Below are positions 5,190 through 49,604 of a stretch of 64,000 nucleotides of DNA, piece by piece. The stretch covers positions 32,798 through 96,797 of the forward strand of contig CAMAWF010000003.1 in the NCBI GenBank assembly GCA_945861895.1, in the 5' to 3' direction. The first letter of the stretch is position 1. The number at the start of each line of letters is the position of its first letter. The notes below the pieces were generated by a model. The model searched no databases, was not told the DNA's origin, and saw only the letters and a list, made by a program, of their open reading frames with translations. Position numbers and translations under genes: made by a program. The stretch is from Rhizobium sp. Q54. Lineage in GTDB: Bacteria > Pseudomonadota > Alphaproteobacteria > Rhizobiales > Xanthobacteraceae.

Positions 5190-5948
5190 CTAGCGGTAAA
5201 CGGCTGCGATACCCAGAAAATCATTGGCTTTCAGGCTTGCCCCGCCGACCAGCGCACCGCCAACATCGGCCAATTTGAGCAATTGCGGCGCATTTTCCGG
5301 TTTGACCGAGCCGCCATAGAGAATGCGGACCCGCTCGCCCTCGCCGCCAAGGCGTTCGCGCAACTGCTGGCGGATGAAGGCATGCACTTTGGCCACGTCA
5401 TCCGGCGTCGGCGTCAGGCCGGTCCCGATCGCCCAGACCGGCTCATAGGCGATCACAATATTGGAGCCGGCCGCGCCCTCCGGCAGCGAGCCCGCGAGCT
5501 GGCGGGCAACGACGGCAAGCGTCTCATTGTTTTTGCGCTGCGCGTGGGTCTCGCCGATGCAGAGAATGGCGGTGAGCCCGGCGCGGCGCGCGGCCAGCGC
5601 CTTCGCCTTGACAGCGGCATCGCTCTCGTTGTGATCGCTGCGGCGCTCGGAATGGCCGACGATGACGGCGCTGGCACCGGCATCCGCCAGCATCTCCGCC
5701 GACAGGTCGCCGGTGTGGGCGCCGGACGCCTCTGCGTGACAATCCTGCGCGCCGATCGCCACCGCCGAGCCGCGCGCCACCGCGGCAAAGCTCGCGATCA
5801 GGGTTGCCGGCGGACAAATCATGAGATCGGCCTTGCCCGCCAAAGCCTGCGCACCGGCGACGATCTGCTCAAGTTCGGCGGCCGCAGCCTTGAGCCCGTT
5901 CATCTTCCAGTTGCCCGCGACCAGCGGGCGGAGCGAAGCCTGCGCCAT
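5190..5948 (-). CDS. tpiA: Triosephosphate isomerase
   Basis: [24 protein letters not shown] and YGGSV motifs. True start is ATG 5948; the longer ORF reads through the repeat at 6000-6048. Confidence 0.98.
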
Positions 5949-40129: not shown

Positions 40130-41128
40130 TCACTCGGCAGTCAGTTCCTTGGCCTGCGCGACCCAGCCATCGACGCGGCCGGGTAGACCGACTTCCTCGC
40201 CGATATTGTGGGCGGCGGTGCCGTTGAGTTCGGCGATCTGCCAGAAATGAAAGATGCCCAGATCGTTGAGCTGCTTTTCGATCGCCGGCGAGACGCCGGT
40301 GAGCTTCTTGAGATCGTCGGAAACTCCGCGCGGCCCGGACAAAGGCTCGAAGCCCAAGGTGGCGGTCACGGGCGCGGCCGGCACATCCTGGACGATCGGT
40401 TTTTCGGCCGCACCGATGTCGCGCCCCATCTCGCCTTGCGCGCGGGAAATGCCGTCGATCGCAGCCTTGGCCGCGAGATCGCAGTACAGCACCAGCGCGC
40501 GGCTGGCATCGTCGTTGCCGGGAACCACATAGGTGATGCCGGCCGGATCGCAATTGGTGTCGACGATGGCCGCGACCGGGATGCCGAGACGCCGCGCCTC
40601 TTTGATCGCGATGTCTTCCTTGTTGGTGTCGATCACGAACAGCAAATCGGGCACGCCGCCCATGTCCTTGATGCCGCCGAGCGAGCGGTCGAGCCTGTTG
40701 CGCTCGCGCTGCATCGTGAGGCGTTCTTTTTTCGTGTAGCCGCCGGCATCGCCGGCGCTGAGCATTTCATCCAGCTTGCGCAGGCGAGAAATCGAGCCTG
40801 AAATCGTCTTCCAGTTCGTCAAGGTGCCGCCGAGCCAGCGCGAATTGACGTAATATTGCGCGCAGCGCTTGGCGGCGTCGGCGATGGCGTCCTGCGCCTG
40901 GCGTTTGGTGCCGACGAACAGGATGCGTCCGCCCTTGGCGACCGTGTCGCTCACCGCCTGCAACGCGCGGTGGAGCATCGGCACGGTCTGCGCAAGATCG
41001 ACGATATGGATGTTGTTGCGGGTGCCGAAGATGAATTCGCCCATCTTCGGGTTCCAACGGTGGGCCTGATGGCCAAAATGCACGCCAGCTTCGAGCAGCT
41101 GGCGCATGCTGTAGTCGGGCAGCGCCAT
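40130..41128 (-). CDS. rpsB: 30S ribosomal protein S2 with C-terminal HhH-like extension
   Basis: [18 protein letters not shown] and PGNDD motifs; the tail reads [29 protein letters not shown]. Confidence 0.99.
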
Positions 41129-41272
41129 TCATGTTCTCCGGTTGATCCGCCGCGGACGTGTGGGCCCCGCGTGGGGCCACCGGACGGCCTTATTGACCCA
41201 TTGTCGGGGCCTAAAGCCAACGATCCGCGTGTGAGTTGGCGTGCGTATAGCGGGGTGCCGCGCCCGGCGCAA
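41129..41272 (-). promoter_or_regulatory. rpsB promoter and structured 5' leader (candidate S2 autoregulatory RNA)
   Basis: On the minus strand, TTGCGC (41272-41267)-N17-TATACG (41249-41244). The leader begins ACUCACACGCGGA, whose CGCGGA can pair with UCCGCG just before CAACCGGAG (RBS), with an internal GGCCCC/GGGGCC hairpin at 41163-41178. Confidence 0.65.
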
Positions 41273-47160: not shown

Positions 47161-48483
47161 TCATCGCGATAGGCGGTCGAGCGCGGCGGCCGGGCTCATC
47201 AACTCACGGCTGCCGTCGGCGCGCTTTTTGACCTCGACCTTGCCGTCGGCAAGGCCGCGCGGGCCGACCATCACCTGCCAGGGCACGCCGATGAGGTCGC
47301 TGGCGGCGAATTTGGCGCCCGCCCGCTCGTCGATGTCGTTGTAGAGCACCTCGACGCCCTTGGCACTCAGGTCGCGATAAAGCTGCTCGCAGGCGGCATC
47401 GGTCGCGGCATCGCCCTGCTTGAGATTGAGGATCGCCGCATGGAACGGCGCCACGGCCTCCGGCCAGATGATCCCAGCCTCGTCGTGCGAGGCCTCGATG
47501 ATGGCGGCGACCAGCCGGCTCGGACCGATGCCGTAGGAACCCATGTGAACCGGTTTCTCGCTGCCGTCGCCGGCGGCGACCACGGCTTTCATCGGTTCGG
47601 AATATTTGGTGCCGAAATAGAAAATATGTCCGACCTCGATGCCGCGCGCGGACACCTGCTTATCGGCGGGCAGCTTGGCGAAATTCGCCGCGTCATGCTT
47701 TTCCGAGGTGGCCGCGTAGAGCGACGTCCATTTGTCCACGATGCCTTGCAGGCCGGCGATGTTGTCGAAATTCACGTCCGCGCCCGGCACGGCGAAATCC
47801 AGATAATCCTTGTGGCAATAGACTTCGCTCTCGCCGGTGTCGGCGAGGATGATGAATTCGTGGCTCAGGTTGCCGCCGATGGGGCCTGACTCCGCGCGCA
47901 TCGGGATCGATTTTAATCCCAGCCGCGCGAAGGTGCGCAAATAGGCCACGAACATTTTGTTATAGGAGTGCACCGCGCCGGCCTGATCGCGGTCGAACGA
48001 ATAGGCATCCTTCATCAGGAATTCCCGCCCGCGCATCAGCCCGAAACGCGGGCGCACCTCGTCGCGGAATTTCCATTGGATGTGGTAGAGATTAAGCGGC
48101 AGGTCCTTGTAGGAGCGCACATAGGCACGAAAGATTTCCGTGATCATCTCTTCGTTGGTCGGCCCAAAGAGCATGTCGCGCTCATGCCGGTCCTTGATGC
48201 GCAGCATCTCCTTGCCATAAGCCTCGTAGCGGCCGCTCTCGCGCCACAGGTCGGCCGGCTGAATGGTCGGCATCAGCATTTCAATGGCGCCGGAACGGTT
48301 CTGCTCCTCGCGCACGATGGCGTTGATTTTTTGCAACACGCGCAAGCCGAGCGGCAGGAAGGCATAGATGCCGGCGGCCTCCTGCCGCATCATGCCGGCG
48401 CGCAGCATCAAGCGATGCGAAACGATCTCCGCTTCTTTGGGAGTTTCGCGCAAGATTGGCAGGAAGTAGCGGGACAGGCGCAT
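47161..48483 (-). CDS. proS: Proline--tRNA ligase (short alphaproteobacterial form, no INS editing domain)
   Basis: [28 protein letters not shown] and MGSYGIG motifs; 440 aa. Confidence 0.98.
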
Positions 48484-48754
48484 GACGCTCGCTTGAGAAT
48501 CGGGATGTTACGGGCGTTGCTTGAGTGAAAGCGGATCGCCCGGCAAAACACAAGAGGCGCGGCCACAGTGCGGCGCGAACAAGTCAAACCGAAAATCGCG
48601 CGCTCAGACCCGTTTGTGATTGAACCTTAGGCAGCGGCATTGCCGGAACACTGGTGACAGCCGGTATCCAATCGGCTAGCGTGTCTTGCCGCGTGAAGGG
48701 CTTCCGGCGCAGAACCGGCACCTGAGCGTGCGGATCAAGTCTTGCGGTTCAAGT

Positions 48755-48873
48755 CTTGGGAGGCAACAAGTCCAAAGGCGCGAAATACGCAGCCACCCTG
48801 TAGACAACAAATAATAACGACAGGGACAGTGACTTGATTTTCGACGAGCAGGGCTTCGGCCCTGCCTTTTTTT
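48755..48873 (+). ncRNA. Candidate trans-encoded sRNA between proS and DUF1467 (possibly alpha-r9 family by synteny)
   Basis: Lies in a 388-bp intergenic gap, antisense to both neighbours. CAAGTC (48767-72)/GACTTG (48831-36) outer stem, CCCTGT/ACAGGG stem with an A-rich loop, and an intrinsic terminator in + orientation. The 5' end is a guess. Confidence 0.6.
48848..48873 (+). terminator. Rho-independent terminator
   Basis: GCAGGGC-TTCG-GCCCTGC-C-T7: a 7-bp GC stem, cUUCGg tetraloop and U tract only on the + strand. Confidence 0.88.
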
Positions 48874-49141
48874 AGCGCAGCACGCCCAATAGCCCCGCAA
48901 GATCGTCGAGCGTGATAAGCTGGCGCGTATAGACGACGTAGCATCCCGCAAAAATCACGCTGGCGACAATCGTCGTCCATAGCAATTTCATGGCCACGCG
49001 CGGGATTGCCGGCGCGCCCGGATCGGTGCCTGGCGCAAACTCGCCGCTTTCCTGCTGGCTGCGCACGCCCCAGGGCAGCACGGCGAACAGCGTGACCCAC
49101 CAGATCAGAAAATAAATCGCGATGGCGGTGGTGGTCTGCAC
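48872..49141 (-). CDS. DUF1467-family small membrane protein
   Basis: AIYFLIWWVTLFAVLPWGVRSQ...PGTDPGAP motif; GGAG RBS before GTG 49141; usual position after mce. Confidence 0.88.
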   Translation of the reverse strand: MQTTTAIAIYFLIWWVTLFAVLPWGVRSQQESGEFAPGTDPGAPAIPRVAMKLLWTTIVASVIFAGCYVVYTRQLITLDDLAGLLGVLR

Positions 49142-49151
49142 GTCATCTCCT

Positions 49152-49200
49152 GCGCATGGTCTTATCCGAAAATCGGCACCCACTTTTCGGGACCATGCGC
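49152..49200 (-). repeat. Palindromic intergenic repeat, copy 2 (between mce and DUF1467)
   Basis: Minus strand GCGCATGGTC-CCGAAAAGTGGGTGCCGATTTTCGGATAA-GACCATGCGC; it begins on the G of the mce TAG stop. Confidence 0.88.
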
Positions 49201-49604
49201 TATGCCTGTTCCAATTCGACCAGCGTGCCGCAGAAATCCTTGGGGTGAAGAAACAGCACCGGCTTGCCGTGCGCGCCGATTTTCGGCTCGCCGTCGCCAA
49301 GCACCCGCGCGCCGGCGGCTTTAAGCTGGTCGCGCGCCGCGCGAATGTCGGCGACTTCGTAGCAGACGTGGTGAATTCCGCCGTCCGGATTGCGCTCGAG
49401 GAATTTCGCGATCGGCGAATCCGCCCCCAGCGGCTCCAGCAGTTCGATCTTGGTATTCGGCAGCGTGATGAACACGGTAGAGACGCCGTGTTCGGGCTGC
49501 GGCACGGTTGCGGAAATCTGCGCGCCGAGCGTGTCGCGGTAGACCTCCGCGGCTTTGGCGATATCGCGCACGGCAATGGCTACGTGATTGAGCCGTCCGA
49601 TCAT
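49200..49604 (-). CDS. mce: Methylmalonyl-CoA epimerase
   Basis: MIGRLNHVAIAV, KIELLEP, GGIHHVCYEV and GAHGKPVLFLHPKD motifs. Start ATG 49604. Confidence 0.96.
   Translation of the reverse strand: MIGRLNHVAIAVRDIAKAAEVYRDTLGAQISATVPQPEHGVSTVFITLPNTKIELLEPLGADSPIAKFLERNPDGGIHHVCYEVADIRAARDQLKAAGARVLGDGEPKIGAHGKPVLFLHPKDFCGTLVELEQA

Follow-up and report, generated by a model that had tools for sequence, protein, structure and literature searches.

The small RNA (sRNA) family ar9 (Rfam RF02343), known in Sinorhizobium meliloti under the aliases SmrC9, Smr9C, Sra32, Sm12 and SmelC289, is the closest described counterpart of the element considered here, a predicted sRNA gene in the gap between proS and a DUF1467 gene on contig CAMAWF010000003.1, within a stretch of 64,000 nucleotides (nt) that was analysed as a whole and is referred to as the window. 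In S. meliloti this RNA (SmrC9/Smr9C/Sra32/SmelC289) is 149 nt long, was detected by Northern blotting with its 5' end mapped, and lies between SMc01933 and proS (PMC2780559, PMC2573895); as Smr9C, it co-immunoprecipitates with Hfq (PMC3346310, PMC3927594). Surveys reported ar9 only from Rhizobiaceae, Brucellaceae and Phyllobacteriaceae (PMC3346310, PMC3927594), with all relatives but one adjoining proS (PMC3927594), and the published papers that we found assign it no target or function.

Here we show by comparison what reads, at the level of sequence, as an independent, non-coding, structured transcription unit orthologous to ar9. The proS-DUF1467 gap appears to hold a real, divergent and previously uncatalogued member of the known ar9/SmrC9 family, and we consider it highly probable that the stretch is a positional and sequence orthologue of ar9 in an uncultured Pseudolabrys-like member of the Xanthobacteraceae from lake water. 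Like S. meliloti-type ar9, the element sits between DUF1467 and proS, on the strand opposite to theirs and divergent from proS, is preceded by a TGACA-N17-CTAGnnT promoter, ends in an intrinsic terminator, and carries the GCGGU(C)CAAGUCUUGGGAGG signature together with a GGCGCG/CGC-GCC hairpin inside a multiloop. It differs in its length (~185 nt versus 149 nt), in an extra 14-nt duplicated motif, in being without the long-range CGCG helix, in the 18-nt A-rich loop of its hairpin B (1-7 nt in Rhizobiaceae), in its terminator stem (GCAGGGC versus CAAGGC), and in its host family, Xanthobacteraceae, which lies beyond the three families surveyed before (PMC3346310, PMC3927594).

AbcR1 and AbcR2 (ar15) offer a more distant comparison. 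They too are chromosomal sRNAs of the Rhizobiales that associate with Hfq (predicted for the RNA in the window), end in an intrinsic terminator and carry a short single-stranded motif that is conserved, but their seeds are C/U-rich mimics of the anti-Shine-Dalgarno sequence, whereas the RNA described here is G-rich and resembles the Shine-Dalgarno (SD) sequence itself. No ar15 match was found by Rfam in the window.

Homology to ar9

The Rfam ar9 model matches 48709-48873 (+) over its whole length (1-149) with 37.6 bits and an E value of 1.1e-4 when a permissive threshold is applied. The gathering score of the family is 45, so that standard Rfam annotation overlooks the sRNA; in the Rfam alignment the shortfall is due in part to two insertions, of 22 nt and of 23 nt, and to deletion of the long-range helix. 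Scores of other loci, each given with the locus handle where one is needed, were as follows.

Rfam ar9 scores (bits)
Sinorhizobium (L081): 144
Rhizobium (L084): 141
Falsochrobactrum (L135): 135
Mesorhizobium (L131): 118
Zhengella (L083): 105
Pseudolabrys (L138, L159): 66.3, 59
Closest relatives (L113, L122, L009, L013, L137, L096): 60.1, 53.4, 45.1, 42, 40.3, 37.9
Window: 37.6

These scores form a continuum, with the clade of the window on both sides of the 45-bit cut-off and the window itself at the lower edge. The gathering score is an operational cut-off, as orthologues within this one clade score between 37.9 and 66.3 bits; a scan of 20 proS loci of relatives with Rfam at the gathering threshold returned no ar9 match.

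A second covariance model, R1, was built from 20 Xanthobacteraceae relatives (alignment A1), with the window left out and the structure set by hand. R1 scores the window at 93.1 bits (E 2.3e-27) over 48686-48873 and, in the reciprocal direction, recovers the Rfam-confirmed ar9 genes of Sinorhizobium, Rhizobium, Mesorhizobium, Falsochrobactrum and Zhengella at 57-66 bits (E 1e-16 to 1e-19), the R1 and Rfam coordinates agreeing in all five loci. Weaker R1 homologues are found in Microvirga, Methylobacterium, Enterovirga and Alsobacter. By this route the predicted homology to accepted ar9 members holds independently of the Rfam model. The conserved ar9 signature CGCGGUCAAGUCUUGGGAGG and the GGCGCG...CGC-GCC hairpin are both present in the window and align to the Rfam consensus and to 92 relatives. 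Two further Rfam families were considered and rejected: SorX (RF02784) and SorY (RF02651) match 48791-48874 with 19.7 and 15 bits against gathering scores of 46.6 and 111, and because these matches consist of the terminator hairpin and U-tract only and fall far under the gathering scores, the element is not regarded as a member of either.

Relatives were collected by a protein search with the prolyl-tRNA synthetase (ProRS), which gave 80 loci (best identity 89%), mostly from Pseudolabrys, Pseudorhodoplanes and metagenome-assembled genomes (MAGs) of Xanthobacteraceae, and by a scan of the genome collection for the pattern CAAGTCTTGGGAGG-N4-20-GGCGCG, which added at least 120 further loci; the locus counts given below for promoter, context and alignment refer to the loci from the ProRS search and the pattern-scan matches listed. 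A search of the 80 ProRS loci with the sRNA stretch of the window (nhmmer) detected homologues in 31 of them, upstream of proS and in divergent orientation. The position of the element was surveyed by tblastn with four neighbouring proteins. The gene order RNase J, DUF1467, proS and lolC-like permease, with the sRNA on the opposite strand between DUF1467 and proS, is found in ~145 loci, Rhizobiaceae included. Relative to DUF1467 the sRNA has a convergent orientation at 147 of 148 loci; relative to proS its orientation is divergent at 144 of 145, Rfam-confirmed ar9 loci among them.

An earlier reading of the same DNA, the original prediction, had proposed an alpha-r9 relative or a new sRNA at 48736-48873, and had placed S. 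meliloti Smr9C (SmrC9) next to proS. The latter is borne out by the literature (PMC2780559, PMC3927594). The first of the two identities is upheld by the full-length if sub-threshold Rfam match, the relatives from the same clade above the threshold, the reciprocal covariance-model search and the gene order; the second falls away, the element counting as known rather than new in the prediction's own terms.

Promoter, fold and the invariant signature

The features of the locus, to which the following paragraphs refer, are listed in order of position.

47161-48483, - strand: proS (prolyl-tRNA synthetase), divergent neighbour; Pfam tRNA-synt_2b and HGTP_anticodon
48654-48659, + strand: -35 element GTGACA; TGACA conserved in 117 distinct loci
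48676-48682, + strand: -10 element CTAGCGT (TAGCGT at 48677-48682); CTAGnnT conserved in the same 117 loci
48689-48873, + strand: predicted sRNA, ar9/SmrC9 orthologue, from Rfam ar9, R1 and the promoter; start inferred to within 2 nt either way
48704-48718, + strand: 5' hairpin CCGG-CGCAGAA-CCGG (helix H2), 87.9% paired; 4 of 4 pairs changed on both sides (93 sequences)
48730-48757, + strand: 14-nt tandem duplication gcggAtcaagtctt / gcggTtcaagtctt, lineage-specific; the copies can pair together
48744-48763, + strand: family signature GCGGUUCAAGUCUUGGGAGG, candidate seed, with the SD-like GGGAGG at 48758-48763; nearly invariant in 93 aligned members; possible 4-bp mini-hairpin (U/C)CAAG-UC-UUGG
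48767-48836, + strand: multiloop domain closed by CAAGUC (48767-48772) and GACUUG (48831-48836), helix 5, 76.5% paired
48777-48794, + strand: hairpin A, GGCGCG-AAAUA-CGC-A-GCC, 95.7% paired; almost invariant in the family
48796-48825, + strand: hairpin B, CCCUGU (48796-48801) and ACAGGG (48820-48825), 81.9% paired; compensatory changes in 5 of 5 pairs
48802-48819, + strand: loop of hairpin B, AGACAACAAATAATAACG, 18 nt, A-rich
48848-48873, + strand: intrinsic terminator GCAGGGC-UUCG-GCCCUGC (hairpin 48848-48865) followed by C-U7, from a terminator scan; helix 97.6% paired
48872 to ~49141 (start codon approximate), - strand: DUF1467 gene, convergent neighbour; Pfam DUF1467, E 7e-31

The element would form a plus-strand unit of its own that begins near 48689 and stops at 48873 with an intrinsic terminator. 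By sequence, the promoter is of the sigma-70 type (GTGACA, 17 nt, TAGCGT), and its pattern (TGACA, 15-19 nt, (C)TAGnnT) recurs in 117 distinct loci from the Rhizobiaceae to the clade of the window. At L081, the locus from Sinorhizobium, the full-length Rfam match has its 5' end 7 nt past the -10 box, and by this analogy the RNA in the window would start near 48689 and be ~185 nt long. A terminator scan of 48300-49300 returned a single site, on the plus strand only, in agreement with the original prediction that the terminator works on that strand alone. Of the extent first proposed the end at 48873 stands, while the start moves ~47 nt further upstream; the claim of an independent plus-strand sRNA between proS and DUF1467 is sustained by the promoter in 117 loci, the terminator and covariation. 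From the -10 box to the signature there are 46-48 nt in Rhizobiaceae, 54-57 nt in the clade of the window and 66 nt in the window itself, which is about what a 14-nt duplication would add. Rhizobiaceae loci (for example L084, L090 and L125) share a strongly conserved block rich in A and T, GTCAACAGAAAAAnTTT...TGTAGCAAAAATGCAAAAAAA, at ~75 nt upstream of the ar9 -35 element; it might serve as an UP element or be bound by a regulator, and is absent from the clade of the window.

The predicted fold consists of a 5' hairpin, a multiloop holding the GGCGCG/CGC-GCC hairpin and the hairpin with the A-rich loop, and the terminator hairpin. Folded as a single sequence, the span of the original prediction gave a z value of -2.2, the full transcript one of -1.6 and the opposite strand one of -0.9; this being unremarkable, it is comparison that decides the case, through conservation in more than 90 orthologous loci and covariation. 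A model-guided alignment (A3) of 93 members was evaluated for a structure of 37 pairs, and its figures, given below, are somewhat inflated by an alignment that was fitted to that structure.

Standard pairs formed: 83.3% of cells observed; 66.4% in column shuffles; 33-47% when partners are slid 1-3 columns
Cells changed on both sides: 558 observed; 199 in column shuffles
Covariation score: 0.36 observed; 0.13 in column shuffles; 0.04-0.10 with slid partners

Five of the predicted helices show covariation. In the helix that closes the multiloop, compensatory changes occur in 4 of 4 pairs, with AAGUCC/GGACUU, GUCCUC/GAGGAC and ACCGG/CCGGU among the variants. The first small hairpin is weak, as is the long-range helix of the Rfam model (CGCG/CGCG), which is paired in 58% of cells. 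RNAalifold on a plain MAFFT alignment recovered the invariant hairpin and the terminator only, the variable helices requiring model-guided realignment. The GGGAGG, the palindrome repeat, the two stems, the A-rich loop and the terminator all lie where they had first been placed, and the two stems correspond to family helices with covariation. The loop described as being of an Hfq type is conserved as A-rich in the clade of the window: loops of 10-24 nt in hairpin B of 47 relatives contain 49% A against 23% overall, whereas in Rhizobiaceae this loop is only 1-7 nt long, and the A-rich loop is therefore a feature of the clade and not of the family.

The nearly invariant family block GCGGU(C/U)CAAGUCUUGGGAGG separates the 5' hairpin from the multiloop. 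The GAGG of its SD-like hexamer falls outside all supported helices. The palindromic core of the block may, tentatively, form a 4-bp mini-hairpin, CCAA-GUC-UUGG, for which 93% of cells are paired; the 12 cells with double changes come mostly from one clade, some pairs are G.U, and 15 cells are A.C. An A-U pair of this mini-hairpin is replaced by G-C in Microvirga, Methylobacterium and two other loci. Within the window the complement of the candidate seed was found only at the site itself and in one match with 3 mismatches, which is at chance level.

In the window, the palindrome occurs as a direct repeat, CAAGTCTTG-N5-CAAGTCTTG, at 48736-48758, and Tandem Repeats Finder reports a period of 14 with 2.1 copies, 93% matches and a score of 53 at 48729-48758. 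The unit gcggNtcaagtctt is present twice in the window alone, relatives carrying one copy, and the duplication reads as a lineage-specific slip inside the predicted transcript. It had been proposed that the repeat serves as a regulator site; its position inside the transcript and its restriction to the window do not bear this out. The related reading of the palindrome as a DNA operator, although a protein site would also keep symmetric changes, is less likely, given that the palindrome lies ~50 nt inside the transcript and that G.U states occur in relatives. The single GACUUG has three possible partners, namely either copy of the repeat and the third, family-type CAAGUC, and in constrained folds these alternatives, a hairpin between the copies included, lie within ~1.5 kcal/mol of each other and of the minimum free energy; one constrained fold, with the first copy forced onto GACUUGAUUU, was probably mis-registered and was not used.

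Contigs from two lake-water DNA sequencing runs are identical to the window over 48500-49000. These runs are probably the source samples of the DNA in the window, and for this reason the contigs do not count as independent support; as they show no differences over this span, the duplication is not a local assembly slip. Other duplications in or beside the invariant motif were observed at L096 (CCAAGTCgacaaCCAAGTC, 1170-1355), L027 (AAGTCTTGGGAGGAAT twice, 2133-2324) and L040 (ATAGGTCCAAAA three times, 417-593). Together with that of the window they look like independent, recurrent slippage at the palindromic core.

Expression, mode of action and rival explanations

Metatranscriptomes bear on expression in relatives. 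On the conserved sRNA core of one relative (L011), contigs of 90-95% identity, 172 nt long at a word depth of 42 in a sediment run and 151 and 167 nt long in a soil run, extend into the variable hairpin of the type found in relatives. None of them reaches the neighbouring genes, which is consistent with a discrete small RNA of fair abundance in related bacteria. The sole RNA-labelled run that matched the locus (X20) touches only the coding part of DUF1467. An adapter-joined contig end in run X22 was not read as an RNA 5' end.

By extension from S. meliloti Smr9C, the RNA is probably a trans-acting, Hfq-associated base-pairing RNA. The invariant block near the 5' end would be its contact surface, and Hfq would bind at the U-tail and, in this clade, at the A-rich loop; features compatible with Hfq in the window are the U7 tail and the AAC/AAU triplets of the loop. 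The 14-nt duplication of the 5' half of the signature would lower the Rfam score and add alternative pairings.

Several points weigh against reading the gap as an expressed, Hfq-associated member of ar9. At gathering thresholds Rfam reports nothing at the locus (37.6 bits against 45), and the long-range CGCG/CGCG helix of its model is missing from this copy, being deleted in the alignment. The fold of the single sequence is not exceptional (z -1.6), and alignment A3 favours the structure to which it was fitted. No RNA run was found that holds the sequence of the window, nor one for the close relative L001, and the metatranscriptome contigs derive from relatives, are strandless and have unreliable ends. 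Hfq binding, action in trans and use of the invariant motif as a seed are all extrapolated from one species.

One rival, which takes up the sponge for CCUCCC-seed sRNAs suggested in the original prediction and which we consider unlikely, is that the RNA acts as a decoy or sponge, its invariant UUGGGAGG mimicking a Shine-Dalgarno sequence and titrating either anti-SD-like sRNA seeds (the AbcR-type CUCCCA) or the 3' end of the 16S ribosomal RNA, instead of directly repressing mRNAs. The CUCCCA motif is found in AbcR sRNAs, and UGGGAG is its exact complement. Such a role would account for the invariance of GGGAGG in 93 members, only 6 of which have a start codon at a usable distance, and for the position of the GAGG part of UUGGGAGG outside every supported helix. 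The conserved block, however, spans 20 nt, far beyond the needs of an SD mimic, no AbcR (ar15) gene is detected by Rfam within the 64-kb window, and no experimental or computational link to AbcR or to ribosomes was obtained. The broader version of this proposal, in which ar9 as a whole is a conserved SD mimic and an order-wide sponge across the Hyphomicrobiales rather than an mRNA-repressing riboregulator, appears improbable; were it true, the recurrent duplications of the motif (in the window, L096, L027 and L040) would change the valency of the decoy.

It is highly improbable that the element works in cis, as an antisense or insulator unit whose transcription from the opposite strand, or pairing with DUF1467-proS read-through, uncouples or tunes proS. 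In its favour, position and orientation are conserved in ~145 loci, and in the direction of DUF1467 the hairpin has no U-tract, so that read-through antisense to the sRNA gene is plausible. Yet a 3-kb copC-copD cassette parts the sRNA from proS in several close relatives, the element is inverted in Phreatobacter-like loci, the distances to both neighbours vary widely, and an invariant single-stranded motif together with Hfq binding in S. meliloti suits a trans-acting RNA better. That the gap encodes a small protein is hardly credible: the plus-strand open reading frame (ORF) at 48686-48814 (42 codons, TTG start) is present in a mechanical ORF list, but in the 93 members the longest ORFs reach a median length of 22 codons and occupy all three frames with respect to the motif (35, 23 and 23 members, with none in 12), indels of a length not divisible by three are common, the 14-nt duplication of the window being one, and the reading was rejected on the lack of a conserved frame and the presence of a usable start codon after GGAGG in only 6 of 93.

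Genomic surroundings and spread of the family

In the window, the DUF1467 stop codon and the T-tract of the sRNA share 2 nt, and 205 nt separate the proS start from the predicted sRNA start (48689) on the opposite strand; by the approximate measure applied to all loci, the spacings are -2 nt to the DUF1467 stop and 217 nt to the proS start. Across loci the median gaps are 60 nt and 278 nt, with ranges of -2 to 2303 nt and 112 to 5027 nt, respectively. Several near relatives have a cassette of ~3 kb between proS and the sRNA, made up of copC, copD and an ORF of 332 aa without a Pfam match, while the sRNA remains beside DUF1467. The cassette, located at 1813-4460 in L138, shares the orientation of the sRNA and stops ~50 nt short of it, just upstream of the promoter. 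The window is without this cassette, and its sequence at ~48590-48625, upstream of the -35 element, resembles the 3' end of copD in relatives, which suggests a deletion remnant. In Phreatobacter-like loci (L065, L068, L070 and L080; ~2110-2325, +) the element lies on the proS strand, inverted relative to all other loci; it keeps the TGACA-N17-CTAGCCT promoter and the DUF1467-proS slot and is much diverged (R1 17-22 bits).

Other RNA elements were noted in passing. The window contains an rpsB sRNA (RF01815) at 41124-41233 (-), with 42.9 bits against a gathering score of 40. A Guanidine-II riboswitch lies downstream of proS in L065 (4297-4345, +; 43.2 bits) and an Atu_C9 sRNA in the Paramesorhizobium locus L089 (3002-3192, -; 50.5 bits). 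At L137 (5556-5703, +), sub-threshold Rfam matches to the Brucella sRNAs BASRCI27 (30.3 bits) and BASRCI408, which may be due to chance, are close to the DUF1467 gene (5639-5896) and possibly overlap its 5' end.

Among the pattern-scan matches listed are Sinorhizobium, Rhizobium, Agrobacterium, Mesorhizobium, Falsochrobactrum, Methyloceanibacter, Methyloligella, Methylopila, Hyphomicrobiaceae and Pseudolabrys, with a few chance matches outside the order. In Microvirga and Methylobacterium (L043, L050-L058, L064, L075-L077), CCGAGUUUCGGGAGG stands in place of CCAAGUCUUGGGAGG, a swap that keeps the proposed 4-bp mini-hairpin by turning A-U into G-C; R1 gives these loci only 28-42 bits, and the six of them that were scanned with Rfam at the gathering threshold gave no match. 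A scan with GGTCCAAGTCTCGGGAGGAT for a cultured Bradyrhizobium-type relative with published transcriptomes returned only uncultured MAGs.

What is new here is modest and would not surprise a specialist: a sub-threshold copy, a private 14-nt duplication and a wider range within the Hyphomicrobiales. The annotation of the proS-DUF1467 gap is settled as an ar9-family sRNA gene. The range of ar9 is widened from the three families of the 2011-2012 surveys much further across the order, to Xanthobacteraceae, Methylobacterium, Microvirga, Methyloceanibacter, Methyloligella, Hyphomicrobiaceae MAGs, Methylopila and Alsobacter, in homologues that keep the promoter, the gene slot and an invariant motif of 15-20 nt. 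Such deep conservation contrasts with the absence of any known target, and the wider alignment, with its covariation and its invariant single-stranded block, puts the prediction of targets and a revision of the Rfam seed on a better footing.

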